64,000 nt of DNA from Candidatus Cloacimonadales bacterium (GCA_963665815.1 OY762463.1:3584001-3648000); one strand, 5' to 3'. Shown: positions 771 to 63,698, numbered from the stretch's first letter. Notes: generated by a model from the sequence alone, not told the origin. Numbers and translations are program-made.

Positions 771-868
771 AAAAAACAGCCTCCCAAATGAGAGGCTGTT
801 CAACGAAATCTGTTTTACACACCATTCCAAAGGTCTAAAGACCATTTGGAAGGTATGAAACATCTGAG
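771..868 (-). repeat. 3' unit copy 1 (after gene A): bulged palindrome ~815-860 plus terminator 771-800
   Basis: Coding strand tttcataccttccaaatggtctttagacctttggaatggtgtgtaa...aacagcctctcatttgggaggctgtttttt; matches four other copies. Confidence 0.92.
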
Positions 869-3800
869 TTATTTAAGCATCAGCATTTTCTTAGTTTGAG
901 TAATTTCTGAAGTTATGAGTCTGTAAAAGTATACTCCGCTTGATACTGAGTTACCATTGTCATCTCTACCGTTCCAAGTTACTCTGTGATCATCTGCATC
1001 CAATTCTTCATTAACAAGATTTTTTTACTTTCTGACCGTTGATATTGTAGACAGCAAGTTCTACTCTTCCGGCTTTCTTAAGTGAGAATTCAATGTAGGT
1101 TATTGGATTGAATGGGTTAGGATAGTTTCCTTTAAGCTCTGTTATCAGGTTAACATCTTCAGGATCGGTTGCAGTATCGTAATTGATGTAGTAACCAGAA
1201 GAAGAAGTGCCTGAATGATATACTGCTGTAATGGTTGCCAGATATTGCTCACCATCAGTTAAACCGTTTATAACTAAAGATGTGTCTGTAGTGGTCTGGT
1301 CAATATCTGCGACCTGAACTCTGAAGTGCACTAACTCACGCTCACTTAAATTACTCTCAGAATTTTTTTCCGTATATGATGAGCCATCAACAAGAGCTTC
1401 ATCACAATTAACTTTAGTTCTGAATAAACGGTCTCCACACTGCCATACAAGCAGTCTTTCATTGTTAAGCCAGTTTATATTGGTAGGAGCAGTAAATACT
1501 TCGGTTAATTCAACAGTTAAAGCTGTGTTATCTCCTGAAATTATCTGTAATCCTTCTTGAGTAAACTGGTCATGGTCTGTTCTTGCAACTACAAGATTGT
1601 ATGTTCCCGGATACATTCCTTCAAGATCAATATCTCCGTTCTCATCTGATATAACTGAATACTCGGTATTGTCTGAAGGATCTGTCATAATTGCAACTGC
1701 TCCGGCATTATTGCCTGTATTGGAAGTTACATCAATATGAAGTCTACCGAATTCAAGAATGTTAAAGTCTACATCTATGGATTGTCCATCAACTGCGTTG
1801 ATGTTATCAATAATCTGAGTTTCATAACCATCTTTTTCTGCTGTGAGACTGAATGTAGCTGTTGGAAGATTTACAAAACAATATAATCCGGAATTATCTG
1901 AGAAAGTAGAAATTCCATTGCTCAGAGTAAGTTCTGCGTTCGGTACAGGATTATCAAATGTATCTCTTACATATCCTGTAATTATTGCACCCTGTCCCAG
2001 CAGAAAATCAACTATAGTAGTTTGGTCTTGAACAAGCTGAACTCCACCAATAGATTGAGTAGTATAGTTCCTTAACGAAGCAGTTACCGTATAAGTTTCA
2101 GGCGGTATTACCAGTAATTCATAATGACCTGCTGCATCTGTATAAACAACTGTAAAAAGTTCTTCTACAAGAACCTGGACATTATCAAGAGGGTTTCCGG
2201 ATACGTCTGTTATTGTACCGGCAATACCGGTCTGGGAAGGCTGTACATTTACACGAAGAGGTTCTGTTTCATCATTTAATGGAGCTTCATCTCCCTGAAG
2301 AATAACCTTACCATAGATTTCAGTAATACCTTCTACTGAAGGATTCCAGTCAAGGGAGAAATCTATGTTCTGTGCCTGTGTAATTGGCTGTCCGGTAACT
2401 GATGCAAGCTCAGTATTACTTGAGAAAAGTTTTACATCGTATGTGGATTGATCATTGAAACCAATGTTTCTTACAGTTACAGTATATGTAGAGGTTATAC
2501 CTACTCGAGGCATTTCATTTCCGGAAATCAATAATACTGCCAGATCATCATCAGGTGTAATCAAGTTAAGCAAGCTCACATCATCAATTGCGATATCACT
2601 TTCAGAACCGTTTCCAGTGTGACCACTGAATCTGAGATGAATAATCTGACCTGAGAAGATTGACAGATCAACTTCTTGTTCAATCCATTGATCTCCCTGA
2701 TCTCCACTTATTGAGAAGAAACCACTTATCCAGTTGTTTGTACTATGTTTATATACATCAATACTCAGAACTCCCATATCACTACCATACATATGGCTCC
2801 AGAAATACAGTACAGGATAACCATTATTTGTAAGGTCAAATGGTCTTGTTTCTATGTTTGCTGTCATATTGTTGTATCCGGAAGCCTCTGTGTAAATATA
2901 GTAACTTGAACCTGTTGTGTGATCAAATGAAGGTCCGGTATTAGGAGATGTTGTTGAACCTGATTGAATTGTCCAGCCAATATCGTCATTATTGTTCTGA
3001 GACCACCAGCGTGGAATTGATCCGTCGTCAAAATCAGCTGTATATGGATAAGCTGTAATAGTTGGATCCCCACGTACTGTAAAACTCCAAACCGGGCAGT
3101 TTGAAGCAGTTCCATTGTTATTGTAAGGAATAACCTGCCAGTAATATGTTGTTCCATAGGTCAAACCACTATAATCGTAGAACAAACTATTTGCCCTGTC
3201 TACATTATAACGAATATTTGTCGGTGGGTTATCTGTTCCAAAACTAAGATTGTAACCGGTTGCTCCTACAACTCTTTCCCAGTTCAGAGATCCTGCTTCG
3301 AACAAGTTTGTTGCCATATCAGCCGGCATTACAGGATTTGCACATTCCGGAGGGGTTGTGGTATCATAAACACTGACATCATCTATAGCAATATCTCCAT
3401 AATAACTGGATGTACCAAGAGCTGTATATCTTACAGCCATATTGTCAGACAAGTATGGGGGCAGGTCTATTTCCACATAAGTCCATACAGGACTGTACAA
3501 TAATGACGAAACACTGTTGTGCCAGGTACCATTCGAGAAAATATCGACATTGAGAGTTGACTGGGCAAAAGTTGATTCACCAGGATTTCCACTCCAATAA
3601 TAGAAGGTAAGTGTAGGATTTCCTAATCCGGACATGTCAAATTGGTTTGTTATTATTTCTGCATCATCAGGAGCACGACCAATATCACAAAATCCAAGGA
3701 AATCGCCTGTACCTGTAGTGTGATCTGAACTTGCAGCATGAGACAAGTTCGATTCAATTTCCCATTCATCGTTTGCATTAACTCCTTGAACCCATGATGC

Positions 3801-4841
3801 TGGAATTCCATTTTCAAAGTTTTCATTCCATGGGAAAGTCGATACATTAGCGGTAGGATCTTCCATTGTCATAAATATCCATGTATTACCCATTGTAGTA
3901 TAACGAGTATTCGAATTATGTGTATCCACTCTCCATTCATAATACGTATGAGGGTTAAGATTGCTGAATGAATATGAACCAGCATTTTCTACAACAGCAC
4001 CTGAAACAACCTGAGTCATATTTCCTGATTCACCAAACCATAAATCATATGTTTCGGTATCTGAACCAAATTCCCAGGTTAGTGTACCTGTCGGAGAAAC
4101 ACAATATGTTCCTGGAAGCGGGGAAGGATCAACAGCATATTCCGGATAACTAACCTGCGATGTAAACCTTATTGCCATATTATCATAGATATTCGAGTTG
4201 TCATTATAGCAATATTGAAGTCCGATCATTCCATCACTGTTCTCTATACCGATTGTAGAGTTGCGTGTAAAGATATTATTAAACGAATCATACTGAAGTA
4301 TTATATCTCCGTTTTCGAGTAAAATCACTTGAGAACTCAAAATATTAACGCTCTGATTCGGATTTAACAAGTTTGTGCTAAATGATATCAGCAACGCATT
4401 TGAGTTGTCATATACAATATTTTCATATGATGCTGTTGCATAAGGAGAGGGAATACCCGGAACATAATGTATGAAACTCCAGAACCAGGAAATCATATTA
4501 TTCGGAGCATTCAAATTGGGAATTGCATTATTTCCAAATCCATAGTTAGAATTGGTGAATGTAATAAATCCATCTGAGCTCAAATAGAGATTAGTATACG
4601 TGTTATCGTAGAAAGGAAAATTAAATCCTATTGGAAATGGACCTACAATGCCTGCATCACAATTAATTTGAACCTGATTAGCATTCACTGTATCAGGTGT
4701 GATCCAGCTATAGACAGGACCATTGGGATTGTTGCTGTTTGTCCATGAATATCCAAATGCATCAGGTCCTCCTGAAGTTTGTCCATTCAAAGTAATAAAT
4801 GAGAATAAAAGAATAGTGATTAAGACCGTGCTCAGTCTCAT
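869..4841 (-). pseudogene. Gene A: secreted modular protein (N-terminal NIDO-like domain, Fn3-like, 2 MAM-like, CARDB, 3 carboxypeptidase-regulatory-like, FlgD-Ig/CTD), frameshifted at 1020-1026
   Basis: ORF 1011-4841 has a signal peptide and RBS aaggaggt and stops at QKVKKSC*. Removing one A from the A7 run restores KVKNLVNEELDADDHRVTWNG...KKMLMLK* ending at 869, as in the paralogs. Domain names come from motif recognition, not an HMM run. Confidence 0.8.
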
Positions 4842-10360: not shown

Positions 10361-10363
10361 ATA

Positions 10364-18313: not shown

Positions 18314-18371
18314 TATCGTGTACATTGTGCTTATTAAATGTATACACTGTCAAATACTTAAGGAGGTTTAC

Positions 18372-21300
18372 ATGAGACAGAGACTAGTTTTTTTTATTGT
18401 TCTAATATTTACTATTTTACCTATGTATGCTCAGGTAAATGTAATTTCAACATTTCCTTATGAAGAGAATTTTGATAATAACCAGATTCCTCAATTTTGG
18501 AGCGATATAACTCAAGATACAGATCGATGGATTGTTGGTATATGTGACCATTTGAGTTATACAGGTCCTCAAAATGGTGATCATACAGCTGGACCTTCAG
18601 GATATCTTTACTTTGACTCTTATTTTTCAAGTGATTACGATGTTTATACCATGAAAACACCAAGTTTTAATGTTGCAGGTTTAACATCTCCGCAATTCAC
18701 ATTCTGGTATAATATGTATGGACTTCATATGGGTGAGTTACACATAAATATTTATCAGCCGGGATCAGATATTTTATACACAGATGTTGTCCAGCCTATA
18801 TGGGGAAATCAGGGACAAGAATGGATTAGTCAATCTATTGATCTGCTGCCATATAATAGTGAACCATTTGAGATACAAATTATCGGTATTGCCGGAGACG
18901 ATCATTACTGTACTATATCAATTGATGATATCAAGGTTTTTAATAATCCGGCAGTCCCCACACCAGCTACTCTTTACACCCCATCTGATCTGGAGAACTA
19001 TGTTGATGAACAGGGATTACTTAGATGGAGGAATTCAGATGGAGCGACAGGCTACAAACTGAGTATCGGTACAGATTATCCTCCGACAAATATCCTTGAT
19101 AATGATGACAGGGGCAATAGTCTGGTATACGATTTTTTTAATTACTCCATGGGAACTACATATTATTGGCAGGTAACACCATATAATAATAATGGTGATG
19201 CTGTCGGGTGTCCTATAATGTCTTTCACAACAAGACCTGATCCGGCAACATCAAACTGCCTGTTTGCTGAAGATTTCTCTACATGGCCTCTTGATTCCAA
19301 CAGGTGGAGTACTGGGGGAACACAACAATGGGCTGAAGACCCAGGTTCCGGAGGTGCATATTGTGATTTATGGGGATGGTCTTCAGGCAATAATGCAACA
19401 TTAATTTCAGCTCCTATTACAATTTCCGGTAACTATAACTTAGAATTCAGATGGTCGCATAAGTTCAGACCGGTTGAGTTTAATGATGCTCTGAATATAT
19501 TTGTTTCAACAAACCAGTCGACCTGGTCTTTATTAGCTGGAAAAGCTCAGGAACAGCTGCATTCTAATGATGGGGCGGATAATCTGTCTCCCGGAACCTT
19601 TGTATGGGAAACTATAAGTTTAGACCAATATTCCGGACAGACTATTTATCTTAAATTTGAGGGCGTGTATGGTGCAGGTCCAAGGCTTTATATTGATGAT
19701 ATCAGTGTTTACGAAAGAGTTCCATCCTGCCCGACTGTTCCAGTTCCTGCTGATTTGGCAACAGGGGTTATTGAAGCAGGTACTCTTAGCTGGGTTAGTG
19801 CTCAGGGAGCTGCAGGTTACAAAATATCTTTAGGAACAGATAATCCTCCAACAAATATCGCAGATAGTATTGATGTAGGAACATCATTGTTTTATGATTA
19901 CACAGGATTAGCTTACAATACAACATATTACTGGAAAGTAACACCTTATGATACCGTTGGTGATGATGCAGATTGTCCGGTCTGGCAATTCCAGACAAGA
20001 ACAGGTTTTGCGGTAACAACTTTCCCTTGCACAGAGACATTTGATGATGGGCAATTGCCAAACCTGTGGGTTGATGATCCGTCAAATACCGACCCATGGT
20101 CAATTAATAATTCAACTCCATCTGTAGATACTGGTCCTCAATCAGGAGATCACACTTCAGGTTCAGGCAACTTTATCTTTACAGAGGCTTCCGGAAACTA
20201 TAATCAGACATTTAAGATGAAAACAGTCAGATATGATGTTTCAGCTCTGACTTCTCCTCAGTTTGTTTTCTGGTATCACATGTATGGCAGCACAATGGGA
20301 ACACTCAATGTAAATATTTATCATCCGGATTCCGGGAATCAATACATGGATGTAATTGTTCCTATTTCCGGGGATCAGGGAGATACATGGTTCTGCCAGA
20401 CTATAGATCTTCTTCCTTATAACTCAGAACCATTCATTCTGGAATTTGTTGCTGTTACCGGCACAGATTTCCATAGTGATATATGTATAGATGATGTCAG
20501 TGTTTATGATAACACAACCCCTCCGGGATGTGTAACTCCTGTAATTCCAGCTGATCAGGCTAACGAGGTTGTAGAGCAGGGAAGTCTTCATTGGGGAACT
20601 GTCATAGGTGCAACCGGTTACAATCTTAGTTTTGGAACAGATAACCCACCAACAAATATACTTGATAATGTAGACCGAGCTGACAGTATTTTCTACGATT
20701 TTTCAGGATTAAGTTATAGTACTACATACTATTGGCAGGTTACTCCTTACAATACTAATGGCTCAGCAGTAAACTGTCCTGTATGGAGCTTCACAGTACG
20801 TGGGGATCCAACTATTACGGCTTATCCGTATACTGCGGATTTTGATTCAGGGATGATACCTTCCTGGTGGTCTCAGGACAATAATGACGATATGGACTGG
20901 ACATTTCAATCCGGTTCAACAACATCTTCTAATACCGGACCTTCATTTGATCACACAACAGGTTCAGGTTACTATATTTACACAGAGGCTTCCGGATACA
21001 ACAATATGACAGCGAACATAGAAACAAGACCATTTGACCTTACAAATAATGGTTATCCTGTATTGTCTTTCTGGAGCCATATGTATGGTGGTGATATGGG
21101 ATCTCTGAGTATTGATGTATATAATCATAGTACAAACAACTGGACAAATGATTTCTTCTCAATAAGTGGGGATCTGGGAGATCAATGGATTGAACAAGAA
21201 GTTGATCTGACAATTTTCTCAGGACAGATCATTCATCTCAGATTCAGTGGTCACACAGGAAACGGTTTTGAAAGCGATATCGCGATTGATGATGTGAGCT

Positions 21301-23003: not shown

Positions 23004-23097
23004 CTCAGATGTTTCATACCTTCCAAATGGTCTTTAGACCTTTGGAATGGTGTGTAAGTTAGATTTCGAAACAGCCTCTCATTTGGGAGGCTGTTTT
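23004..23097 (+). repeat. 3' unit copy 2 (after gene B): palindrome 23012-23057 plus terminator 23069-23097
   Basis: tttcataccttccaaatggtctttagacctttggaatggtgtgtaa ... aaacagcctctcatttgggaggctgtttt. Confidence 0.92.
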
Positions 23098-43904: not shown

Positions 43905-46900
43905 ATGAGTAAGAAGCTAGTTTCAATAATCTTACTAACTTTTGCATTCTTTGCTTTGCATGCGCAGACTGCAGGAGGTCCGGATGCCTTCGGGTATTCA
44001 TGGCGAAACAGCAATGATCCGAGTGGTCCAACATATGGTTGGATAACTCCGGACACGGTAAATGGAAATCTTGTAACGGGACAGGCCGATGACAACATGG
44101 TCGGACCATTCCCTATAGGATTCCAATTCCCATTTTATGCTAACACCTATACTGATTTCTATTTGAGTTCAAATGGATTTATATCTTTCTCAGGTGATTC
44201 AAACAGTCTTTCTAACTATACAATTCCAACTTCCGGAACCCCAAATGCTTTTATCGCGTGGTTCTGGGATGATATGGACCCTGTAAGTTCTTCAACGCCA
44301 GCAAACAATGCAACAGTGATATACGAAAATATTACTGTTGACAATGCTAATGCTATGTTGATCTCTTTTGTTAATTATCATGAATATCCTGGTGAAAATG
44401 CTGGTTATGTAGATTGTCAAGTAATACTGAAAGCCAATGGTGAAATTATTATTCAGTATGATCATATTGATAATTCAATTGATAGAAATGGTTGTACAGT
44501 TGGTATTGAGAACAGTGTCGGTACAATTGGTCTTGAATATCTATTCAACAATGGAGCAAACTTCAGTGATCAGCTTGCAATACGATTCTACACAATCGAA
44601 CCGGGTTATCCTGAGTTTCCAAGAAATGCAAGTCCTGCAGATAATTCACAAGGTGTTGCTGTAAATGGCAACCTCACATGGGATTTCGGTGCTGATACCG
44701 ACAGCTATGACTTATGGTTCGGACCTGCCGGAAACATGACACAGGTTGTAACCGGAGCTACTGCCGGAGCTAATGCTTCATATGCATACACCGGATTAAA
44801 TACTCTTACAGATTACGAATGGCAAGTTGTTTGTCATAACACTAACACACGTTTGACAACTCCCGGATCTGTATGGGGTTTTACGACTCAATGTGGAACT
44901 GTATCAACATTCCCATTCAATGTAGACTTCGAAAATGGTGGAGCTGAACCATCATGCTGGAATCAGGATCCTGGCAACCTTGATCCATGGACTTTCGGAA
45001 CATCAACTCCATCGGTCAATACAGGTCCTCAAAGTGGTGACCATACTTCCGGCTCAGGATACTTCATGTATACTGAAGCATCAGGTAATCTGAACCAGAC
45101 TTTCACAATTGAATCACCGGTATTTGATGTTTCAGGAGCAACTTCTCCATCACTTGAATTCTGGTATCATATGTATGGACAGACAATGGGATCTCTTCAG
45201 GTCAACATACATAAGCTTACATCAAACATTTATATTAACGACGTTGTTCCTGCCATTTCAGGAGATCAAGGAGATGTATGGAATGTTCAATCGATAGACC
45301 TTACACCATATAATGATGAACCAATTGCAATTCAATTTATTGGAACAACCGGAAGTGACTACTATAGTGACATTTGTATTGATGATTTCTCAATCATTGA
45401 TCTTGTTAATCCTCCGGGATGTACAACTATAAATTTCCCTGTTAATATGGGAATAGATGTTCTTGAAGATGGTATGTTAAGCTGGAATGCTTCTGTAGCA
45501 ACTTCAGGATACAAAGTCTATCTTGGTACAGATAATCCTCCAACAAACATGATTGATGGTCTTGACGTCGGGGCCAATACAACATACACATATACAGGTC
45601 TTTCATATGCAACAAACTACTACTGGAAGATTGTACCTTACAATGCAAATGGCGATGCAACAGGTTGTCCTGTAAACAGCTTTGTGACACGTGGAGATCC
45701 TACAGTAACAACATATCCTTATACTGAAGATTTCGAAAGCGGCACAATACCTACTAACTGGTTAAATCTGACTGATGTTGACAATAATGACTGGACATTC
45801 ATTTCTAATCATAACTATGGTGCTACATTTGACCACACATCAGGTTCAGGACTTTTCGCTGCATTTGATGATGCCGGTGGAGATGACTGCTGGCTTATGT
45901 CTACAGTATTTGATATTACAGCATTAACTAATCCTAGTCTTGAGTTTTACTATTGGATTGGTATAGATACACAAGCAGCACAGGCTCAATCAGTACTTCA
46001 TATTGATATAATCTCTGGAGACAGTGTTTATTATGATGTTTCAACATTATCATATTCTTCTCACTGGACAGCTTATTCACTTGATTTAACTCCTTACAGT
46101 TCAGACAGGGTCAAAGTGTTATTCAGAGGAGAAGGAAGTTCATCAATTTACAGTGATGTGGCAATAGATGATTTTCTTATTCATGATATTAATACTGCAC
46201 CTGTTTGTAATACACTCCTTGCTCCAGCCGATCAGGCAACATTCGTAAGTATTGATGAAGTACTTTCATGGGATGGTACTCCCGGAGCATCAGGATACAA
46301 ACTTTATCTTGGAACAGATAATCCTCCAACAAATATTGACAATGGTACTGATCTTGGAAATGTATACTCATATTCATTACCATTCGTAAATTATGACACC
46401 GTATTCTACTGGTCAATTGTACCATATAATCCAATAGGAGAAGCAGCAAACTGCTCAGTAAGGTCTTTCACAACAAGAACAGATCCTACTGTAAGCACAT
46501 TCCCTTATAACGCATCATTCTCAGACCAATCCCTTCCTCTGGACTGGATTAACATGACAAATGATTCTGACGAATGGATATTATCTCCATCTCAAACATA
46601 TACATGTTCATCTGAACATACTGGAAATGGCGGAAACGCTTTAATTTTTGATGATAGTGGTACAGGTGTGGATTCAGCTGTTGTTCAGACAACTGTTTTT
46701 GATATCACCGGCATGACAAATCCTGTTGCAGCTTTTTATTACTGGATTGGTGTTCAGTCACAACAGGCTCAGTTGCAGTCTAACTTATACGTAGATGTAT
46801 TATCAAACGGTGTATGGGATTATAATGTTGTTTCCTATACATACACCGGAGCATGGGCAGTTGCATCTATTGACTTGATTCCGTATATGGGTAATGATGT

Positions 46901-49900
46901 TAAACTTCAATTACGCGGTGTTGGAACATCTAGTTTCTATAGTGACATAGCAGTCGATGACTTCATAATTTATGACGCAACTACCCCTCCTGGCTGTGCT
47001 CTTGCAATTAACCCACTTAATGGACAGGGAGAAGTTGTAGAAACCGGTTCTCTAAACTGGGCAGCAGCAATGGGAGCTACAGGTTATTATTTAAGTTTCG
47101 GTTCTGACAACCCTCCAACTGACATTGTTGATAATGTTGATCTTGGTAATGTTTTAACTTATGACTTTACAAACCTTAATAGAGAGACAACATATTACTG
47201 GTCTGTCACCCCTTACAATGGTAACGGAACAGCAACAGGCTGCCCTATATGGCACTTCCAGACAATACCGGACTCTGTTGTTACAACTTTCCCATGGGTT
47301 GTTACATTCGACAACGGTCAAATACCTATGTGGTGGGAAGATGATCCAACTAATCTTGATCCATGGTCTATAGGTTCTTCAACTTCATCAGTAGATACAG
47401 GACCGCAATCCGGTGACCATACTTCCGGTGGTGGACAGTTTATTTATACTGAAGCATCAGGAAACCTTAATCAAACATTTAAAATGAAAACTTCAGGATA
47501 CGATATTACCGGTTTAGTTGCACCTCAACTTGTATTCTACTATCACATGTATGGTCAGTCTATGGGATCACTTGCTGTGAATATCATCCAACCTGGTTCA
47601 GGAACAATTCATACTGATGTAATGACTCCTGTCACAGGTGATCAGGGTGATGTATGGAATGAAGCCGTTATAGACCTTCTTCCATACAATGCAGAACCAT
47701 TCATTGTTGAATTCGTCGGAACAACTGGAAATGACTTTTACAGTGATATCTGTATTGATGATGTCATTGTTTATGATAACACAATGCCTCCGGGATGTAT
47801 CTCTGAATCAACTCCAATTCACATGGCAATTGATGTTGTTGAATCCAGTAACCTTTCCTGGAGTAGTACTCTTGGAGCAACCGGATTCAATATCAGTCTT
47901 GGAACAGACAATCCTCCAACAAATATTCTGAGTAATGTAGATCTTGGAGATACATTAATGTATACTCTTTCAGGTCTCAGCTACTCAACAACATATTTCT
48001 GGCAAATTATACCTTACAATGACAATGGAACAGCTACAGGCTGTCCTGTATGGAGTTTCACAACTCGTGGTGATCCCACAGTAAACATATTCCCTTATGT
48101 TGCGGACTTTGACAATGGTACACTTCCACAATGGTGGTATGATGATCCAGCTAATCCTGCTCCATGGATCGTATCATCTTCAACACCAAGTGCAAATACC
48201 GGTCCTCAAGCCGGTGACCATACTTCAGGAACCGGTAACTTTGCTTATGTAGAATCAAATAACCACATAAATGAAGCTCATACACTTACTTCAACAGTAT
48301 TTGATATTACAGGATTACAGTCTCCTCAACTTGGGTTATGGTATCATATGTATGGAAATGACAATGGTTCTTTCCAGGTTCATATTTATCAACCACAATC
48401 CGGAACTTTGCATTCAGACGTAATGACACCTGTTAATGGTAATCAAGGTTCTGTATGGCAATGTGCAAACATCGACCTTACACCTTACGCTGCTGAACCA
48501 TTCGTTGTTCAAATGGTTGCTACAACCGGTCAAAATGGTCTCAGTGATATTGCAGTTGATGACTTTACTATCTATAGTAATACTGTACCTCCTTCATGTG
48601 TTACCCTTAACGCTCCTGCTGATCAGGCAGTTGAAGAGACCGAATACGGTGAACTTAATTGGAACAGTGTTCTTGGAGCAACAGGCTACAGACTGTTCTT
48701 CGGTACAGATAACCCTCCAACTGACATTGAAAACGGAACTGACATAAGCGACAGTACATATTTTGCTTTTGCCGGATTAACTTATGGTACAACATATTAC
48801 TGGCAAGTAGTACCTTACAATGGTAATGGCAACTCAACAGGATGTCCTGTATGGAGCTTTACTGTTCGTGGTGATCCTACTATCACAGCTTATCCATATT
48901 CAGTAGACTTTGATGATGGATCTCTTCCAACCTGGTGGTCACAAGACACAACTGATGATATGGACTGGACAATGAATTCAGGTACAACAAATTCGACTAA
49001 TACCGGACCTACAGGTGATCATACTTCCGGAGCCGGATATTACTTATACACAGAGGCATCCGGATATAACAATATGACAGCTAACCTCGAAACAAGACCA
49101 TTTGATTTTTCTAACAATGGATACCCTGTACTTTCATTCTGGTATCACATGTATGGACAAACAATGGGAACTCTCAGTATTGATGTTTATAGTCACACAA
49201 ACAGCAGCTGGACAAATGATTTCTTCTCAATCAGTGGAGATCAGGGTAATCAATGGTTAGAGCAACAAGTTGATCTGACAGTATTTGTTGGACAAACTGT
49301 TCACATCAGATTCAGAGGACATACCGGTGATAACTATTACAGTGACATCTGTATTGATGATGTCAGTATGCTCAATATGATTCCACCGGATGATGACCTT
49401 GCAGCATTGACTATAGTTGGTAATGCAACCCCACGAGTTGGTATTACAAGTACATATACCGTTACAGTAAGAAATATTGGTTTCAATGATCAATCTACCT
49501 ACGATGTTAAGTTAATGGAAAATGGTAATGAACTTGCAACTGTTACTGGACAGGCAATTACTCAAGGTCAGAATATTGATTTTGATATTGACTGGACTCC
49601 TACTGTAGAAGGCGTAACCGATATTTATGGTAAAGTCGTTCTTGCAGGTGACGAAGCAACACCAAATGATGAAACAGAACTATTACGGGTTGATGTTCAA
49701 CCTTCACAAACAGGTATTGCAGGTACAGTAACTGACGTACTTGGTAATCCTCTTGATAATGTTCAAATACTTGTAGAAGAACTTGCATCAGTTGTTTATA
49801 CTGATGAAACAGGACATTACGAATACCTGGCTATGCCACCTGAATCCTACACAGTAACAGCTTCACTTACAAATTACACAAGCCAGACTATTGGCGGTGT

Positions 49901-51074
49901 TCAAGTTGTTCAGGATCAGACAACCATAATTGATATTCAACTTGGTCAAGGTGCTATCATCAGCGGATTTGTAAGAGATACTTATACTAATCCGGTTCCA
50001 AATGTTGAAATGACTCTCAGTGACAGTACAGTTGTTTATACCGATGATTCAGGATTCTATATTATCCTTAATCTTCCAACAGCAACATTCAGCCTTACTG
50101 CATCAAAAGATGGTTTTGAATCAGTTACAACTGATAACATCAATGCGGTTGATGGACAAACTGTTGATGTTGACTTCAATATTCTTGAATTTGGTAGACT
50201 TCATATTGACTTCACATCAAATACAGGAAACAACGCCGGTGCTGTAGCTGTAATGACAGATACTTCTGACAATACAGAATACACTGCAACATCTGATGCT
50301 GATGGTAATATTGACATTGGTGGAATGTATCCCGGAACTTATAACCTTGTTGTTACAAAAGCAGATCACGATCCATATACACAAGATGGAATCCAGATTG
50401 TTGCAGGTGACAATACAGGCTTAAATGTTGATCTGTTTGAAGTGTTGATTGCTCCTACTAATGTAGAATGGATATCAAATGGTGGATACTTGAGATGGAC
50501 TCATGGTGGTAGACTGTACGAAACAAGAGCAGGCGATAATGATGTTCTTGCTGATGGTGAATCCTACACAGAAAGAGATTCTGATAATGAAGAAGACGAA
50601 CGTGCATTCCTTTATTTCAGAGTTGAAGTTGATATAGTAAATCAGACAACACAAGATACATTCTTTGTATTGCAGGGATTTGCTGAGAATGAAGAATTAA
50701 CAGCCAGAATTACAGCAATCTATGAAAGTGGAACAGCTGCAGCTCCTGATTATACATTTAATTATGTTGTTGCAAATGATCCTGATGATGTAAATCTTGT
50801 AACAGAACTTAAAGGTAACTATCCTAACCCATTCAATCCTACTACACACATTGAATTCTCACTTAAGAAAGCCGGAAGAGTAGAACTCGCTGTCTACAAT
50901 ATTAACGGACAGAAAGTAAGAACACTTGTAAGTGAAGAAATGGAAGCAGATAACCATAAGGTTACCTGGAATGGTAAAGATGACAGAGGAAACTCAGTAT
51001 CAAGTGGAGTATACTTCTACAGACTGCAAACCTCTGAAGTATCACAAACTAAGAAAATGCTGATGCTTAAATAG
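43905..51074 (+). CDS. Gene C: 2389-aa secreted modular protein (NIDO-like, 6 MAM-like modules, Fn3-like linkers, CARDB, carboxypeptidase-regulatory-like stalk, FlgD-Ig/CTD)
   Basis: RBS aaggag, signal peptide, GGPDAFGYSW N-domain, five (T/S)DNPPT linkers, MAM motifs, CTD as in B. Confidence 0.92.
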   Translation: MSKKLVSIILLTFAFFALHAQTAGGPDAFGYSWRNSNDPSGPTYGWITPDTVNGNLVTGQADDNMVGPFPIGFQFPFYANTYTDFYLSSNGFISFSGDSNSLSNYTIPTSGTPNAFIAWFWDDMDPVSSSTPANNATVIYENITVDNANAMLISFVNYHEYPGENAGYVDCQVILKANGEIIIQYDHIDNSIDRNGCTVGIENSVGTIGLEYLFNNGANFSDQLAIRFYTIEPGYPEFPRNASPADNSQGVAVNGNLTWDFGADTDSYDLWFGPAGNMTQVVTGATAGANASYAYTGLNTLTDYEWQVVCHNTNTRLTTPGSVWGFTTQCGTVSTFPFNVDFENGGAEPSCWNQDPGNLDPWTFGTSTPSVNTGPQSGDHTSGSGYFMYTEASGNLNQTFTIESPVFDVSGATSPSLEFWYHMYGQTMGSLQVNIHKLTSNIYINDVVPAISGDQGDVWNVQSIDLTPYNDEPIAIQFIGTTGSDYYSDICIDDFSIIDLVNPPGCTTINFPVNMGIDVLEDGMLSWNASVATSGYKVYLGTDNPPTNMIDGLDVGANTTYTYTGLSYATNYYWKIVPYNANGDATGCPVNSFVTRGDPTVTTYPYTEDFESGTIPTNWLNLTDVDNNDWTFISNHNYGATFDHTSGSGLFAAFDDAGGDDCWLMSTVFDITALTNPSLEFYYWIGIDTQAAQAQSVLHIDIISGDSVYYDVSTLSYSSHWTAYSLDLTPYSSDRVKVLFRGEGSSSIYSDVAIDDFLIHDINTAPVCNTLLAPADQATFVSIDEVLSWDGTPGASGYKLYLGTDNPPTNIDNGTDLGNVYSYSLPFVNYDTVFYWSIVPYNPIGEAANCSVRSFTTRTDPTVSTFPYNASFSDQSLPLDWINMTNDSDEWILSPSQTYTCSSEHTGNGGNALIFDDSGTGVDSAVVQTTVFDITGMTNPVAAFYYWIGVQSQQAQLQSNLYVDVLSNGVWDYNVVSYTYTGAWAVASIDLIPYMGNDVKLQLRGVGTSSFYSDIAVDDFIIYDATTPPGCALAINPLNGQGEVVETGSLNWAAAMGATGYYLSFGSDNPPTDIVDNVDLGNVLTYDFTNLNRETTYYWSVTPYNGNGTATGCPIWHFQTIPDSVVTTFPWVVTFDNGQIPMWWEDDPTNLDPWSIGSSTSSVDTGPQSGDHTSGGGQFIYTEASGNLNQTFKMKTSGYDITGLVAPQLVFYYHMYGQSMGSLAVNIIQPGSGTIHTDVMTPVTGDQGDVWNEAVIDLLPYNAEPFIVEFVGTTGNDFYSDICIDDVIVYDNTMPPGCISESTPIHMAIDVVESSNLSWSSTLGATGFNISLGTDNPPTNILSNVDLGDTLMYTLSGLSYSTTYFWQIIPYNDNGTATGCPVWSFTTRGDPTVNIFPYVADFDNGTLPQWWYDDPANPAPWIVSSSTPSANTGPQAGDHTSGTGNFAYVESNNHINEAHTLTSTVFDITGLQSPQLGLWYHMYGNDNGSFQVHIYQPQSGTLHSDVMTPVNGNQGSVWQCANIDLTPYAAEPFVVQMVATTGQNGLSDIAVDDFTIYSNTVPPSCVTLNAPADQAVEETEYGELNWNSVLGATGYRLFFGTDNPPTDIENGTDISDSTYFAFAGLTYGTTYYWQVVPYNGNGNSTGCPVWSFTVRGDPTITAYPYSVDFDDGSLPTWWSQDTTDDMDWTMNSGTTNSTNTGPTGDHTSGAGYYLYTEASGYNNMTANLETRPFDFSNNGYPVLSFWYHMYGQTMGTLSIDVYSHTNSSWTNDFFSISGDQGNQWLEQQVDLTVFVGQTVHIRFRGHTGDNYYSDICIDDVSMLNMIPPDDDLAALTIVGNATPRVGITSTYTVTVRNIGFNDQSTYDVKLMENGNELATVTGQAITQGQNIDFDIDWTPTVEGVTDIYGKVVLAGDEATPNDETELLRVDVQPSQTGIAGTVTDVLGNPLDNVQILVEELASVVYTDETGHYEYLAMPPESYTVTASLTNYTSQTIGGVQVVQDQTTIIDIQLGQGAIISGFVRDTYTNPVPNVEMTLSDSTVVYTDDSGFYIILNLPTATFSLTASKDGFESVTTDNINAVDGQTVDVDFNILEFGRLHIDFTSNTGNNAGAVAVMTDTSDNTEYTATSDADGNIDIGGMYPGTYNLVVTKADHDPYTQDGIQIVAGDNTGLNVDLFEVLIAPTNVEWISNGGYLRWTHGGRLYETRAGDNDVLADGESYTERDSDNEEDERAFLYFRVEVDIVNQTTQDTFFVLQGFAENEELTARITAIYESGTAAAPDYTFNYVVANDPDDVNLVTELKGNYPNPFNPTTHIEFSLKKAGRVELAVYNINGQKVRTLVSEEMEADNHKVTWNGKDDRGNSVSSGVYFYRLQTSEVSQTKKMLMLK

Positions 51075-51171
51075 GCTTTAGCTGTTTACACCGTCCAAAT
51101 GGTCTTTAGACCTTTGGAATGATGTGTAAATTAGATTTCGAAACAGCCTCTCATTCGGGAGGCTGTTTTTT
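51075..51171 (+). repeat. 3' unit copy 3 (after gene C): palindrome 51085-51130 plus terminator 51141-51171
   Basis: tttacaccgtccaaatggtctttagacctttggaatgatgtgtaaa ... aaacagcctctcattcgggaggctgtttttt. Confidence 0.92.
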
Positions 51172-51705: not shown

Positions 51706-51941
51706 TTATTGCAAGATTTTAGATGAAATTCAGGCTATATTGGAGTGCATTGACTGATTCACCAGTGCGATGAGTAAGATCACAAGAAAAACTGTAGATT
51801 GTAACACAATTTGCACTTCTCTGTTTGTATTCTTTCAGAAACATCTAATGTTTTTCAATCATTCCAAAGGTGTTCCACATGAGTCAATCGTCCGGTTGTC
51901 TCTACGTGTTTTGGCAGAGAATTTCTAAGTATGTAAAGTCT

Positions 51942-52058: not shown

Positions 52059-52161
52059 AAAAAAACAGCCTCCCGAATGAGAGGCTGTTTCGAAATCTAA
52101 CTTACACATCATTCCAAAGGTCTAAAAACCATTTGGAAGGTGTAAAGAAACTGATATTGAA
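52059..52161 (-). repeat. 3' unit copy 4 (after gene D): palindrome 52102-52146 plus terminator 52059-52090
   Basis: Coding strand tttacaccttccaaatggtttttagacctttggaatgatgtgtaag ... aaacagcctctcattcgggaggctgttttttt. Confidence 0.92.
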
Positions 52162-55100
52162 TTACTTCAGCATCAGCATTTTCTTAGTTTGTGTTGTTTC
52201 AGAGGTTTGCAGTCTGTAGAAGTATGTTCCACTTGAAACTGAGTTTCCTCTGTCATCTTTACCATTCCAGGTAACCTTATGGTTATCTGCTTCCATTTCT
52301 TCACTTATAAGTGTTCTTACTTTCTGTCCGTTGATATTGTAGATAGCAAGTTCTACGTTTCCGGCTTTCTTAAGTGAGAATTCAATGTGTGTAGTAGGAT
52401 TGAATGGGTTAGGATAGTTACCTTTAAGTTCTGTTACAAGATTTACATCATCAGGATCGTTTGCAACTTCTTCAAATGTGAAATCAAAATCTGGAGCTGC
52501 TGCGGTACCTGTTTCATATACTGCTGTGATTGTAGCAGTAAGTTGTTCTCCAATGTTAAATCCTGTCACTGTGAAGAATGTATCTGATGTTGTTTGATTA
52601 ATAATATCAATTTCAACTCTGAAATACATGAATGCACGTTCGTCTTCTTCATTATCAGAATCTCTTTCAACATAAGATGATCCTTCAACAAGTGCTGTTT
52701 CACCATCTGCTCTGGTTCCATAAATTCTGTCACCATGTTGCCAAACAAGAATACGATCATTGTTAAGCCATTGGATGTTTGTTGGAGCAATAAGGATTTC
52801 ATCAAGAGTAACATCAACAGGAGTATTGTCACCATTTACAATAACAATATTCTGTTGTTCGTGAATGTTACAGTCCGGAAGTGAAGCTGTAAGATTGTAT
52901 GTTCCCGGAAGAACCTCGTTGAGAAGAACAACACCGGTATCATCTGATGTTTCAGTATATGTGTTTGTTCCGTCAGTAAGTTCAACAATTGCACCGGTTG
53001 GTGAACTGAGGTTTGTTGTTATATTAACTGTGAAATGACCATATTCGTTAAGAATAATATCAAGATCAACAGTTGCATCCGCAGCTATAACTACGTTAGA
53101 TTCAGTTTGATCAATATAACCATCTTTAGTTGCATTAACAGTATATGTTCCCGGTGTAACCTGTACAAATGTGTAGTTACCTTGTGCATCTGTTGTTGTT
53201 GTAATAGCAAGTTGTTCGATTTCAACAAGAGCTCCGGCAACTTCAACATTAGCATGATCGTAAACAGTACCCATGAGGATTGCACCCTGAGTCATTGTGA
53301 AGTTTACGTCAGTAAGGTTGTCCTGAGTTACTACGACATTAGTTTGTGTATTGTTATCATAATTTGTCAAACTTGCAGTTACTGTATATGTTTCAACAGG
53401 AACATTAAGGAATTGATAGAATCCATTATTACCTGTATATTGAACAGACTGGAGTTCTTCAATCAGTACTTGAGCGTTAAACAGTGGGTTGCCGTTAATG
53501 TCACGTACATAGCCCTGAATACCTGTTTGTGATGCTTGAACGTTCACTGGAAGTGGTGCAGAAGCATCATTACCAGGACCTTCGTCACCGGCAAGAACAA
53601 CTTTACCGAAGATATTCTGATTTCCTTCCATTCCTGCTTGAGGAATCCAGGTGATAACATAATCATTAATCTGATCATGTGCAATTGTAGTACCTGCAAT
53701 AGTTCCGAGTTCGGTATCAGGAGCAAGCATAAGTTTTACATCATAAGTTGATTGTGTGTTAAGACCATTATTTCTTACGGAAATTGTATAATCTGAAGGT
53801 GATCCAACCATTGGAGTTGTGTTACCAATAACTGTAATAACTGTAAGATCATCGTCTGGTGGTGTTGTAATATTAACTCCAACATCATCAAGGTATAGGT
53901 TAGGACCGTATCCTGAAATACCATCAAACTTAAGATAGATTGTCTGACCACTATATGCATCAATATTTACGGTTTCCTGAACAAAAGTACCAGGAGCTGT
54001 ACTTTGAGCACCATCATTAGATTCAAACAGAGAATCCTGAATTGACCATACAACAGTCCAGTTTGATTGATCTGTTGATACTGACACTTCAAAAGCATCA
54101 TCCGGATATGAAGTATTGAATGTGTGTGACCATTTGAAAAGAAGGTCTGCGTTTCCTGTTAATGCGATTGGTGGTGAGTATAATTCAGCATTACCAGTGC
54201 TCCAGCTCCAGAAGTTTGCGAATATACTTCCTGAACCTGCATCTTCAGCCCATTGCTGAGTACCACCATAGCTCCAGCCACGTGGCTCAAGTGGGAATGA
54301 TGAGAAATCTTCTGTCCATGGGAAGTTAGTAACTGTTGGATCAGGTCTTGTTGTGAATGACCATACAGGGCATCCTGTAGCATCACCATTAGTGTTATAA
54401 GGTACTACAGTCCAGTAGTAAGTAGTATTGAATGCAAGTCCTGAGAAGTCGTAAGTTTGTACGTTACCAAGATCTGTTCCATTTTCAATGTTTGTAGGTG
54501 GGTTATCTGACCCAAAGAAGAGTTTATAACCGGTTGTTCCTCCAGTAGTATTCCATCTGAGTGTGCCCATTTCGATAATTTCATTAGCACCATCAGCAGG
54601 AGTATCAGCTGTTGAGCATCCAGGAGGTGTTGAAACGCTGAAAACAGTAGCATTATCAACGTAGAAGTTAGGACCATAGCCTGTGTAACCTACTACATCA
54701 ATGTATATCGTTTGTCCAAGATAACTGTCAAGATTGAATTCAGCATAAGTAAATGTACCTGGAGCAGTGTTCGCAGCTCCATCGTTTGAATCGAAGTTAG
54801 TTCCACCAAGAGTCCATTCCATGTTCCAGTTAACTCCATCAGTAGAAACTAATACTGCTGCAGAGTCTGTAGGATATGTAGTGCTGTATAAGTGAGACCA
54901 GTTGAAACCAAAGCTGTAAGAACCTGTAGCAGGGAGGGCTATTGGAGGTGTAACCATATGAGCTTCACCATCGCTCCAACCCCAGAAATTACAGTATGCG
55001 GATCCTGATCCTGAATCTTCTGCCCACAGTCTTGATCCAGCAAAGACCCAGTCTTGTAGTGGCCATACGCTGAAATCTTCAGTCCATGGGAAAGTAGATA

Positions 55101-57627
55101 TGGTTGGATCAGCTCTTACAGTGAATGATCTTACAGGACATCCTGTAGGTTCACCGTTTGTATTGTAAGGAGTTACCATCCAGTAGTAAGTTGTTCCGAA
55201 AGTTAATCCTGAGAAGTCATAAGATAAAGCTGCTCCAACATCAAGACCATCTTCTATGTTAGTAGGAGGATTATCTGTACCAAGAGAAACTTTATAGCCT
55301 GTTGCACCTTGTGATCCACTCCAAGTCAGTGTTCCAGCTTCAATAATGTCAACAGCCATATCAGCAGGAGTATTCAGTGCGTTACATGCAGGTGCTGTAA
55401 CATTATCATAAATAGCAATATCATCTATCGCTATATCACCATAAAAACTGTCTGTACCAATTGCATTGAATCTCAAGGTCAGGTCGCTTGCAGAGAAAGA
55501 TGTTAAATCAATATTAACTTCTGACCATGCAGGAGAATATCCGTATGTAGCAACGCCATTATTCCATGAACCATTTGAATATATATCAATGCTCAATGTT
55601 GATTGAGCCTGCTCAGCCTGAGCTACATCACCATTCCAGAAAAAGAATGATACTACAGGACTTGTTAGACCGGTAACATCAAACGGAGAAGTTGCAATAG
55701 CTGCGTTGTCTTGACCTGTACCGCTGTCATCAAATCCAAGGAAGTTACCTGAACCTGTTGTATTATCCATATCTGCAGCGTAATCAATTGTTGTTAAAAT
55801 ATTCCACATATCTTCAAGACTTTCATCATGTGTCCATGCAGTTGGGATACCATTTTCAAAGTCTTCATTATAAGGGAAGGTATTAATTGTAGGATTACTT
55901 CTTGTTGTGAATGTCCATTCAGGACATCCTGAAGCATCGCCTGAAGCATTCTGAGGTATCACTTTCCAGAAATACTGAGTATCATAAGCTAATCCACCGT
56001 AATCAAGTGTTAATGAATCAACTACAACATCGTTGTAAACATCGTAATTACCTGTGGATGATCCAAGAGAAACTTTGTAGCTTGTTGCAAGCTGGGCAGA
56101 GTTCCATCTTAATGTTCCAAATTCAGTTACTGTTGTGGTGTCTGTTGGAGCAACGCTGGTTGTACAACCAGGAGGGTTAGCTACATTCATAACTGAAACG
56201 TTGTCAATAAACACATCAGGACCATATCCTGAAGCTGCGTAGAAGTTAACAATTACTGTTTGTCCTGCGTATGCAGAAAGATTGTATGAGTAATTTACAA
56301 AAGTACCAGGAGTAATATTACCTGCACCGTCATTTGAGTCAAGGTCAGGACCAACTTCTGAGAAGATTTCAGTCCAGTTTACACCATCAGTAGATATAAG
56401 CACTGCAAGTGAGTCGTTTGGATATGTTGCGCTATAAAGACTTGACCAGTCGAACATAAAGCTGTAGTTGCCTTGTGCAGGCACAGCTATTGGAGGTGTA
56501 ATCATTTGAGCAATGCCGTCACTCCAACCCCAGAAATGACAATATGCACTAACGGAAGCAGAATGCTGAGCCCAGTCTCTATCACCGGCAAAAGTCCAGT
56601 CAACCGGAGGCCATACTGAGAAATCTTCTGTCCATGGGAAAGTAGAAATTGCACCGGCTTGTGTTCTGAAAGTCCATGTAGAGCCTTCAGTAGTGAATCT
56701 TGTGTTAGTGTTATGTAAAACAAGCTTCCACTCATAATCAGTTCCTGCTGTGAGACCTGAATATGAGTAAGAACCTGTTGTACCAGCAGCTGCACCTGTA
56801 ACAACTTCTGTCATGTTTCCTGCAGGTCCCAGCCACAGATCATAAGTATCTGTATCAATTCCGAAATCCCATGCAAGGTTTCCGTCTAAAGGTAATCCTT
56901 CACTACCATTTGCAGGAACAGGATTCTGAGCAAAACCGGGATATCCGGCTTCAATTGTATAGAATCTGATTGCAAGGTTGTCTGATAAGTTAGCTCCATC
57001 GTTGTAACAATATGTTAAACCGGTTGAGCCATCGGCATTTTCTATACCTACAGAACAACTATTTCTATCAATGATATCATCAATTTGCTGATACTGAATG
57101 AAGATTTCACCATTCTCGGTAAGAATAACCTGAGCAGTAACTTTACCACCACCATTATAAAGGTATTCATAATAATCGATAAATGAGATCAGGAAAGCAT
57201 TACCGCCATCAAAAGTGATGTTCTCATAATAAACTTGGGTTGCAAGAGTATCAAATCCCGGATCCATGTCATCCCAATACCATGCAATGAGGTTATTAGG
57301 GTTTGATGGATCAGGCATATCCTGATTTGATAGTGAAGATGTTCCACTGAATGATAAAATACCATCAGAAGAAACTGTAAGTGAATCATAAGAAACACCA
57401 TAAAAATTGAAGTTAAAACCAATAGGTACAGGATGTGTAGTCGTGTCATCCATACCTGTAATTAGTGTCGCATTAGCATTTGGTGTTATCCAATTGTAAG
57501 CAGGTCCGTTAACATCGTTACTGCTTATCCATGAATATCCAAAAGCATCCGGTCCACCTGAATTCTGACCGAATAAGATAGTACTGATTAACAAAGCTAT
57601 AGCGATTATAAATAGCTTTTTATTCAT
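52162..57627 (-). CDS. Gene D: secreted modular protein (NIDO-like, 4 jelly-roll/MAM-like modules, Fn3-like linkers, CARDB, stalk, FlgD-Ig/CTD)
   Basis: aaggagga RBS before ATG 57627 (MNKKLFIIAIALLISTILFGQ); GGPDAFGYSW; CTD as in B/C. Confidence 0.9.
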   Translation of the reverse strand: MNKKLFIIAIALLISTILFGQNSGGPDAFGYSWISSNDVNGPAYNWITPNANATLITGMDDTTTHPVPIGFNFNFYGVSYDSLTVSSDGILSFSGTSSLSNQDMPDPSNPNNLIAWYWDDMDPGFDTLATQVYYENITFDGGNAFLISFIDYYEYLYNGGGKVTAQVILTENGEIFIQYQQIDDIIDRNSCSVGIENADGSTGLTYCYNDGANLSDNLAIRFYTIEAGYPGFAQNPVPANGSEGLPLDGNLAWDFGIDTDTYDLWLGPAGNMTEVVTGAAAGTTGSYSYSGLTAGTDYEWKLVLHNTNTRFTTEGSTWTFRTQAGAISTFPWTEDFSVWPPVDWTFAGDRDWAQHSASVSAYCHFWGWSDGIAQMITPPIAVPAQGNYSFMFDWSSLYSATYPNDSLAVLISTDGVNWTEIFSEVGPDLDSNDGAGNITPGTFVNYSYNLSAYAGQTVIVNFYAASGYGPDVFIDNVSVMNVANPPGCTTSVAPTDTTTVTEFGTLRWNSAQLATSYKVSLGSSTGNYDVYNDVVVDSLTLDYGGLAYDTQYFWKVIPQNASGDASGCPEWTFTTRSNPTINTFPYNEDFENGIPTAWTHDESLEDMWNILTTIDYAADMDNTTGSGNFLGFDDSGTGQDNAAIATSPFDVTGLTSPVVSFFFWNGDVAQAEQAQSTLSIDIYSNGSWNNGVATYGYSPAWSEVNIDLTSFSASDLTLRFNAIGTDSFYGDIAIDDIAIYDNVTAPACNALNTPADMAVDIIEAGTLTWSGSQGATGYKVSLGTDNPPTNIEDGLDVGAALSYDFSGLTFGTTYYWMVTPYNTNGEPTGCPVRSFTVRADPTISTFPWTEDFSVWPLQDWVFAGSRLWAEDSGSGSAYCNFWGWSDGEAHMVTPPIALPATGSYSFGFNWSHLYSTTYPTDSAAVLVSTDGVNWNMEWTLGGTNFDSNDGAANTAPGTFTYAEFNLDSYLGQTIYIDVVGYTGYGPNFYVDNATVFSVSTPPGCSTADTPADGANEIIEMGTLRWNTTGGTTGYKLFFGSDNPPTNIENGTDLGNVQTYDFSGLAFNTTYYWTVVPYNTNGDATGCPVWSFTTRPDPTVTNFPWTEDFSSFPLEPRGWSYGGTQQWAEDAGSGSIFANFWSWSTGNAELYSPPIALTGNADLLFKWSHTFNTSYPDDAFEVSVSTDQSNWTVVWSIQDSLFESNDGAQSTAPGTFVQETVNIDAYSGQTIYLKFDGISGYGPNLYLDDVGVNITTPPDDDLTVITVIGNTTPMVGSPSDYTISVRNNGLNTQSTYDVKLMLAPDTELGTIAGTTIAHDQINDYVITWIPQAGMEGNQNIFGKVVLAGDEGPGNDASAPLPVNVQASQTGIQGYVRDINGNPLFNAQVLIEELQSVQYTGNNGFYQFLNVPVETYTVTASLTNYDNNTQTNVVVTQDNLTDVNFTMTQGAILMGTVYDHANVEVAGALVEIEQLAITTTTDAQGNYTFVQVTPGTYTVNATKDGYIDQTESNVVIAADATVDLDIILNEYGHFTVNITTNLSSPTGAIVELTDGTNTYTETSDDTGVVLLNEVLPGTYNLTASLPDCNIHEQQNIVIVNGDNTPVDVTLDEILIAPTNIQWLNNDRILVWQHGDRIYGTRADGETALVEGSSYVERDSDNEEDERAFMYFRVEIDIINQTTSDTFFTVTGFNIGEQLTATITAVYETGTAAAPDFDFTFEEVANDPDDVNLVTELKGNYPNPFNPTTHIEFSLKKAGNVELAIYNINGQKVRTLISEEMEADNHKVTWNGKDDRGNSVSSGTYFYRLQTSETTQTKKMLMLK

Positions 57628-57752
57628 ACTGATCCTCCTTTGTTTAGTTTGCATGCTAAGAGTAAAATTTGTTTTTTTGTAAAATGTAGTCAAATATTAA
57701 GATGGATATTTTTACTTATTGAAGTGTAAATGTATAATCAGAGCGACACTAT

Positions 57753-59870: not shown

Positions 59871-60578
59871 ATGAAAAAGACTTTTTTACTGCTGGCACTG
59901 TTTTCAGTGCTGTTATGGGGCTGCAAAAGCAGTGGATCTACAGAACCATCAGGGAACAACAATTCTTCGGATTTTTCTGATTATGACTATCAGCTGGATT
60001 TGAGTATTGTACAAGTACCTTACATGGATGGGCTGAGAAGTTATGGATATACTGATATTTTCATGAGATGTAAGGATGATACGGAGTTAACTAATTTCAC
60101 CTGTACAATAAATGGTGTTCAATGCAGTACAGAATGGGTTGTATATACAATCTCAGATAAAAAAGGATACAATATCTGGGGTGTTGAAATGTTTGCTGAC
60201 TCAATATATTCTGTCAGTATTCAATCGGATGAACTCAATAAGGAACTAACTGTCAGTCTTCCATCTGCAACAGAAGCAGTCTGGCCGGTTGATTTTGATT
60301 CTGCTGGTGATTTTACTGTCAGCTGGGCATCTGATCTTGATTGTGAAGTTCAGAGACTTTTATTAACATGCTATGAAGATTCTTATGTGAATGGGATAGA
60401 GTTTAACTATGAAATTGATACTGCAGAAAGAGGATACACAATACCTGCAAACACAATTAGTTCATCATATACTACTCAGGAGTTTGAACTGAGAAGAATA
60501 AATTTCAAAGCATCCGGAGAATTTGTTCTCACGGCAAGGATAGTTGATAAGTTTTCATATTCGTGTATAATCTGCTGA
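59871..60578 (+). CDS. Hypothetical lipoprotein
   Basis: RBS aggag; MKKTFLLLALFSVLLWG-C lipobox followed by Ser/Asn-rich linker. Confidence 0.8.
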   Translation: MKKTFLLLALFSVLLWGCKSSGSTEPSGNNNSSDFSDYDYQLDLSIVQVPYMDGLRSYGYTDIFMRCKDDTELTNFTCTINGVQCSTEWVVYTISDKKGYNIWGVEMFADSIYSVSIQSDELNKELTVSLPSATEAVWPVDFDSAGDFTVSWASDLDCEVQRLLLTCYEDSYVNGIEFNYEIDTAERGYTIPANTISSSYTTQEFELRRINFKASGEFVLTARIVDKFSYSCIIC

Positions 60579-60657
60579 TTTCACTACATGGAAGCGTGAC
60601 TTCCTTAAGAATGAAACTGTAATAAATGCTGTTAATTTGATTTTAGTATTATAAATG

Positions 60658-60685
60658 AAAAGCCTGCTGTATGACCAGCAGGCTT
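60658..60685. terminator. Terminator between convergent lipoprotein gene and leuS
   Basis: aagcctgctg-tatgac-cagcaggctt. Confidence 0.7.
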
Positions 60686-60708
60686 CAACTTTATGTGATG
60701 TTATCGTC

Positions 60709-63189: not shown

Positions 63190-63600
63190 TTATCCTCCAT
63201 ATTTTGATTTTACAATTGAAATGAGAAAATTGATACAACTCCCCTAAGGGAGTAAAAGGAAAATTGTATTGCGAATATATTTTTTATTTTGTATCATAAT
63301 GGTCAAAGAATTAGATTCCAGTATTTTGTCAATTATTTCCTATTTCAAAATCCACTCTCTCGATTTTGCATTAAGCCTTACAATAAATTTATAAATATCA
63401 AACATATAAAAAAGTAATTACATAGTGTATTAAAAAAAATAGAATATTTACGGAGGATTAGTGACCAGGAACAGGAAGCATGAAAATGGTGATAAGCTGA
63501 TGAAAGAGGAATATAGCTTTAACAAAGGTTGTGAATTGTTTAATAATGGAGATTAATTCCGTTTCTACGGTTTCTCAAAATAACTCAATTCCCCAAAAAC

Positions 63601-63698
63601 AAAAAAACAGCCTCCCGAATGAGAGGCTGTTATAGAAGTTTAATTTACACACCATTCCAAAGGTTCTGAGACCATTTGGAAGGTCTGAAACATCTGAG
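63601..63698 (-). repeat. 3' unit copy 5 (after gene E): palindrome 63644-63690 plus terminator 63601-63631
   Basis: Coding strand tttcagaccttccaaatggtctcagaacctttggaatggtgtgtaaa ... aacagcctctcattcgggaggctgttttttt. Confidence 0.92.

Follow-up and report, generated by a model that had tools for sequence, protein, structure and literature searches.

A REP-like bulged hairpin behind secreted-protein genes of a Cloacimonadales genome belongs to a dispersed palindrome family linked to one clade of RAYT transposases

The stretch of DNA analyzed here (the window; 64,000 nucleotides (nt), G000:C1:3584001-3648000) stems from a Candidatus Cloacimonadales genome, G000, and was compared with a congeneric genome, G001. 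Behind each of five genes in this window lies a short bulged hairpin that resembles repetitive extragenic palindromic (REP) sequences, followed by a terminator-like hairpin. The five genes encode large secreted MAM/CarboxypepD_reg proteins with terminal Por_Secre_tail/FlgD_ig domains (C-terminal domains, CTDs). On the minus strand, the gene at 1011-4841, with an ancestral stop codon at 869, is followed by a hairpin at 821-854 (first A to last T) and by an intrinsic-terminator-like hairpin with a U-run at 771-799, which is common to the paralog family. On the same strand, the gene at 52162-57693 precedes a hairpin at 52108-52141 and the shared terminator at 52059-52088, and the CTD-encoding 3' end of a paralog that runs past the window (63699-64000) precedes a hairpin at 63651-63684 and the terminator at 63601-63630. 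On the plus strand, the gene at 18318-23003 is followed by a hairpin at 23018-23051 and the terminator at 23071-23097, and the gene at 43905-51074 by a hairpin at 51090-51123, with two pair-breaking changes in its outer stem, and the terminator at 51143-51171.

A first-pass annotation of the window had described these hairpins as an invariant bulged palindrome and a candidate cis-element of the CTD genes. All five copies are indeed present without a mismatch to TCCAAATGGT-N6-ACCTTTGGAAT, the spacer sequences given earlier are also correct, and at all five sites the shared terminator is separate from the hairpin and downstream of it. The segments between stop codon and terminator fold at z = −5.5 to −7.1 relative to shuffled sequences, which bears out a structured element, and the window contained no match to Rfam at the gathering score, as the annotation had supposed. 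Other details needed correction. The first ACC lies 14, 14, 15, 20 and 14 nt from the stop codon, where about 8 to 15 nt had been given, and the value for the first copy counts from the ancestral stop at 869 instead of the actual stop at 1011. The fold is a hairpin as described, but with two bulged T, one per half, and not one; the presumed 11+6+11 inverted repeat is in reality a direct doublet of ACC-TT-NNN-AA-T-GGT. A copy is found at each of the five sites, but the CTD of the gene at 1011-4841 is disrupted by a +1 shift, caused by one additional base within a seven-A run near position 1020. The actual stop is therefore at 1011, the sorting domain is shortened, and the hairpin lies 158 nt beyond this stop. 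The frameshift may have arisen as a genuine pseudogenising mutation or as a sequencing artefact of the homopolymer.

A profile of the window copies matches many further sites in the genome. Their general form is ACC-TT-NNN-AA-T-GGT, a spacer and ACC-TT-N'N'N'-AA-T-GGT, which together fold into a single hairpin whose two sides each have a bulged T. Complementary central triplets were present in 37 of 58 loose matches in G000 (CGC/GCG in 15, GCG/CGC in 11, CCA/TGG in 7, CGG/CCG in 3 and CCG/CGG in 1), whereas three shuffled genomes yielded 2 to 6 matches each, none of them complementary. The window hairpins represent the CCA/TGG form of this doublet; the core that had been called invariant is so among the five window copies, but elsewhere it is one variant of a family with varying central triplets. 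Under a stricter filter G000 holds 47 copies at 38 loci, 31 of which are solo, and 43 of these copies lie outside open reading frames (at least 90 amino acids) although about 90% of the genome is coding. The 47 copies showed no replication-strand bias (22 leading versus 25 lagging). Inverted pairs occur at the transposase genes described below and at three further clusters in G000. When 20 copies, hand-picked from G000 and G001 and related to each other, were aligned, the three central pairs were altered at both positions in 7, 8 and 11 copies and the covariation score was equalled by none of 500 shuffles; CC, T, AA and GG, like the two bulged T, were invariant or nearly so. Metagenomic sequences (80 loci out of at least 124 stretches found, with 91 distinct doublet copies) gave a similar picture, 79 of the 91 copies being complementary compared to a mean of 32 and a maximum of 43 after shuffling. 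The tetranucleotide GT(A/G)G was found at the foot of the stem, on either strand, in 1 of these 91 copies, and the doublet is thus not a canonical GTAG-type REP.

About ten elements are composites in which a doublet is broken, where its second half begins, by one or more units of the GTAG-type REP (G000:C1:36908, 556006, 1202858, 2137897, 2621255, 2744009, 2954865, 2955250 and 2994439). One of them lies in the window at approximately 51815-51905 (minus strand) and was absent from the earlier list; it is a worn composite of a GTAG-type REP, half a doublet and a decayed GTAG-type unit. The idea that GTAG-type REPs had inserted into the doublet at a site between C and T was dropped, as the right-hand junctions do not fit. 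A long array of alternating doublet forms with a spacing of about 119 bp lies downstream of a transposase gene in genome G018 (L038), and one viral contig (L127, IMG/VR) bears a doublet. No RNA data set was listed among the sequencing runs searched.

The doublet is linked to a gene for a PF01797 HUH/Y1 tyrosine transposase (RAYT, for REP-associated tyrosine transposase), located at G000:C1:2133689-2134177 (L001:1369-1857) and flanked by three doublets, an inverted pair upstream and one copy downstream. The suggestion in the first-pass annotation that the hairpin could be a DNA site was right as a possibility. In the 162-residue product the NHYH and YIHENP motifs are intact; it scores 40.1 bits against PF01797 (cut-off 23), and has as its closest titled relatives proteins labelled Cloacimonadales or Cloacimonadota. 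Homologues were also seen in Bacteroidota, Ignavibacteria, Marinimicrobia and Chloroflexi. No helix-turn-helix (HTH) family was detected in its tail at E ≤ 0.1, no solved structure matched at E ≤ 1, and neither a TnpB gene nor insertion sequence (IS) ends were found beside the gene. Four other RAYT-like genes of G000 (G000:C1:3509482, 1237042, 430060 and 3467129) each have a flanking repeat of their own, and downstream of one of them lies a single worn doublet-like copy. In two of these four, as in the published description of subclass 2.4, an additional segment separates the HUH motif from the Tyr motif. Just upstream of the doublet-flanked RAYT gene, L001:1995-3311 (minus strand) encodes an ATPase/TOPRIM-like product that weakly matches retron Ec78 PtuA. 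A contig joint at this locus (27-base side) was read as another repeat copy and not used.

We considered 50 RAYT loci (L007-L056) from G000 and its relatives, taken from the best matches of a single-protein query. Eleven of them form one clade (FastTree support 0.88), and at 10 of these 11 a doublet lies no more than 300 nt away, compared to none of the 39 loci outside the clade, many of which carry palindromes of their own. In genome G096, the bulge is a C both at the RAYT gene and in most of the genomic copies listed. The doublet pattern is present in 31 of 101 close relatives and, across the phylum, in 71 of 232 genomes, with up to 91 copies, the reversed-pattern control giving 0 to 1. In the metagenomic set, doublets lie beside two distinct RAYT genes (4 of the 80 loci, overlapping in pairs). 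Sister RAYT clades of the same order (L015-L020, L039-L050, L021, L024, L034 and L053) are accompanied by other long palindromes, each clade by a type of its own, that have no obvious GTAG at the foot; among them is a doublet with a bulged C in only one of its halves and no bulge in the second (L020 and L046).

The two congeners differ in the placement of these elements. Flanked by inverted doublets in both genomes, the RAYT gene sits at different places, 4 kb from each other, and is 5'-truncated in G001; one doublet copy of G001 is missing at the orthologous site in G000; and at one site there are three copies in one congener versus one in the other. A number of further copies occupy the same position in both genomes, which indicates that turnover is slow.

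In G000, which is not a member of the Bacteroidota, a terminal CTD match (Por_Secre_tail/FlgD-like) is present in 160 genes. A doublet lies within 150 nt downstream of only 10 of these, plus the frameshifted window gene, leaving about 150 without one; most of the 47 genomic copies are located elsewhere, and in the metagenomic set 4 of the 91 distinct copies lie within 200 nt of the end of a CTD gene. The proposed link to CTD genes, and an enrichment behind them, are therefore not borne out. Seven of the 11 doublet-bearing CTD genes come from a single nine-paralog family. A tree of the last 255 coding bases groups these paralogs by species (eight G000 genes with support 0.945 and seven G001 genes with support 0.992), one divergent orthologous pair standing apart, whereas in a tree of the upstream coding region the species are mixed. 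This difference suggests gene conversion of the 3' ends. In the four window genes that are in frame, even 22 of 31 four-fold degenerate sites are invariant. Six of the nine G000 paralogs retain an intact core compared to none of the eight in G001, four of which are reduced to one half while four carry 1 to 4 changes; L061, the syntenic orthologue of the gene ending at 23003, differs by one change in the core, and its outer stem is weakened. The terminator, on the other hand, is kept at all 17 paralog ends (nine in G000 and eight in G001). Conservation of the arms had been taken as a sign of selection, but the arms are decayed or collapsed in every G001 paralog, an outcome that the annotation itself had named as a refutation. 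Together with the species-wise clustering of the ends, this decay indicates that the invariance in the window reflects local homogenisation.

We consider it very probable that the five hairpins are copies of the genome-wide RAYT-flanking palindrome, which is likely recognised and spread by the enzyme as folded single-stranded DNA, and that they arrived as one old insertion subsequently copied along with the gene ends. Since about 47 copies of this transposase-flanking palindrome occur in the genome, the hairpin is likely a passenger of near-identical gene ends and not a novel signal of gene control, and since these ends cluster by species, the five copies likely go back to a single insertion spread by gene conversion. 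By analogy with TnpA-REP of Escherichia coli, the RAYT would bind the doublet as a single-stranded DNA hairpin; instead of a GTAG guide, it would use the fixed CCTT/AATGG arms and the pyrimidine bulges, which are strand-specific, to distinguish the strands, and it would nick and rejoin DNA beside the doublet, thereby spreading the units slowly. One copy would have landed between the stop codon and the terminator in the ancestor of the nine-gene family, after which duplication and gene conversion of the last approximately 250 coding bases plus the 3' untranslated region (UTR) could have produced the apparent invariance in G000. Slippage between the direct halves may collapse doublets to a single half.

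Several observations weigh against this interpretation. The doublets at the G000 RAYT gene are of the CGC/GCG form and not of the CCA/TGG form seen in the window, the doublet has no GTAG guide, and the RAYT protein scores 48.5 bits against NCBIfam NF047646 (REP_Tyr_transpos), below the cut-off of 80. One clade member, L009, is accompanied by a different (variant) palindrome, and 5 of the 13 genomes with at least 10 copies (G030, G066, G070, G082 and G084, all incomplete or fragmented assemblies searched with a single-protein query) yielded no clade member; moreover, kin genomes are non-independent samples. In all eight G001 paralogs, a hairpin of some kind still precedes the terminator (−10.7 to −16.9 kcal/mol), and four of eight stem substitutions keep pairing (p = 0.11 against an expectation of 25%; counted in 9 of the 17 paralog ends, with collapsed, indel-bearing and highly worn ends left out). 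The persistence of a hairpin in G001 and the pairing-keeping substitutions make a mild role at the RNA level possible, and weak selection of this kind on the CTD-linked hairpins is accordingly a possibility.

An alternative would be that the REP copy has been co-opted, its hairpin in the 3' UTR stabilizing the long mRNAs or tuning translation and being kept by selection, which is compatible with a REP origin and would add to it. The hairpin lies 14 to 20 nt past the stop codon on the transcribed strand, and E. coli REPs that lie no more than 15 nt from a stop codon stall ribosomes and lower translation, according to the part of PMC12306157 consulted. Furthermore, some hairpin folds at all 17 paralog ends, one stem change at L065 is fully compensatory, and a separate CTD gene (G000:C1:3358377-3359138) bears a near-identical form of the doublet. 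Yet neither sequence nor length of the element is kept in G001, only some 10 to 11 of the 160 CTD genes have a doublet, three window-type copies carry a pair-breaking G-to-A change, solo copies elsewhere show a weak orientation bias (10 same versus 5 opposite, p = 0.30), and remnants of palindromes fold without any selection. We regard co-option as rather unlikely. A bolder proposal is that a short RAYT clade without HTH reads the guide-less, doubly bulged doublets and that its nicks at the stop-adjacent doublets seed gene conversion, which homogenises and swaps C-terminal sorting domains within this family of large secreted proteins, so that a domesticated transposase would shuffle surface proteins; this we consider improbable.

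Two readings without mobile DNA of the RAYT type fare worse. The occurrence of the hairpin at the same place after all five window CTD genes, with its core invariant, speaks for the main idea of the first-pass annotation, a site for protein binding or a cis-regulatory RNA dedicated to the joint control of the secreted CTD family. These five genes, however, belong to one nine-gene family with homogenised ends, the roughly 150 other CTD genes lack the doublet, and the motif is dispersed over the genome and flanks RAYT genes. The small share of CTD genes with a doublet and the decay of the core in G001 largely refute the CTD-specific reading, and we judge it highly improbable. Sites of the attC type are bulged hairpins located directly past a stop codon, and both this resemblance and the presence of tyrosine recombinase genes in the genome could point to an attC-like cassette site or a tyrosine-recombinase core site at which secreted genes recombine. 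The first-pass annotation had noted such a core geometry, but the segment from AATGG to CCTT spans 6 to 13 nt across the 47 copies, and with such a variable spacer a fixed recombinase geometry fails. In addition, the halves are direct and not inverted repeats, no integron integrase exceeded the TIGR02249 cut-off (best score 76 versus 265 bits), and the motif flanks a HUH transposase and not a recombinase. A recombination site is therefore extremely improbable.

The closest known counterparts are the REPs, bacterial interspersed mosaic elements and REPINs of E. coli with their group 2 RAYT (PMC8266576, PMC6006769). As far as the consulted parts of these papers go, both systems comprise short, imperfect, bulged extragenic palindromes that are dispersed, sometimes form inverted pairs or arrays, and flank a low-copy HUH/Y1 transposase gene, and TnpA-REP requires a bulged single-stranded DNA hairpin and acts strand-specifically (PMC8266576). 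Unlike the E. coli REPs described there, the doublet has no 5' GT(A/G)G guide, is a direct doublet unit with two bulges and is lower in copy number (about 47), and the RAYT motifs differ. By its motifs, which were read by eye, the 162-residue RAYT resembles subclass 2.1.2 of TnpA-Y1 subclass 2.1 (group 1 of Bertels; TIRYT) in the portion of the published classification consulted: NHYH and SS match, while FE (FQ in the table) and YIHENP (Y[IV]HLNP in the table) differ, and a C-terminal HTH is lacking. The subclass 2.1 RAYTs covered in that portion of PMC6006769 were found to have no REPs, whereas the G000 RAYT is flanked by a dispersed REP-like family; group 1 RAYTs have low counts of flanking repeats in the part of 10.1101/119735 consulted, and relatives flanked by terminal inverted repeats (TIRs) as well as untagged REP-like families appear in that of PMC3733652. 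No GGGG[AT][CG]A[CG] inverted repeats were seen in the RAYT flanks. An 18-nt palindrome of Caldithrix abyssi, aAACCGTTgaAACGGTTt, was likened to REPs by its authors (PMC5317091). It shares with the doublet the untagged, intergenic and strand-asymmetric character, a comparable copy number (about 38) and similar ACC...GGT arms, but it is a single palindrome without T bulges, and the text consulted names no link to a transposase. The end hairpins of IS200/IS605 elements (IS608, ISDra2) are likewise bulged single-stranded DNA hairpins read by a Y1 HUH enzyme; the doublets differ from them in being dispersed without the gene, with no IS ends and no TnpB beside the RAYT. In the published text searched, the doublet motif was not found and no paper contained two of the four 12-mers of its core (figures, bioRxiv supplements and the TIR and REPtron lists in the supplements of PMC3733652 lay outside this search and could include related repeats), and the portion of Table S1 of PMC6006769 examined contains no such doublet.

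Taken as a whole, the hairpin is a real feature, REP/REPIN-like and without a GTAG guide, and it is not a CTD-specific cis-element. It also provides a caution, since gene conversion of paralog ends can disguise a decaying repeat as a selected 3' UTR motif. For the RAYT family, the finding ties a guide-less REP to enzymes that resemble subclass 2.1, which the part of PMC6006769 consulted reports to be devoid of REPs. The natural stem variants, with fixed arms and bulges, free central triplets and either T or C in the bulge, are ready substrates, and such a series would serve to address how a RAYT chooses strand and cut site without GTAG.

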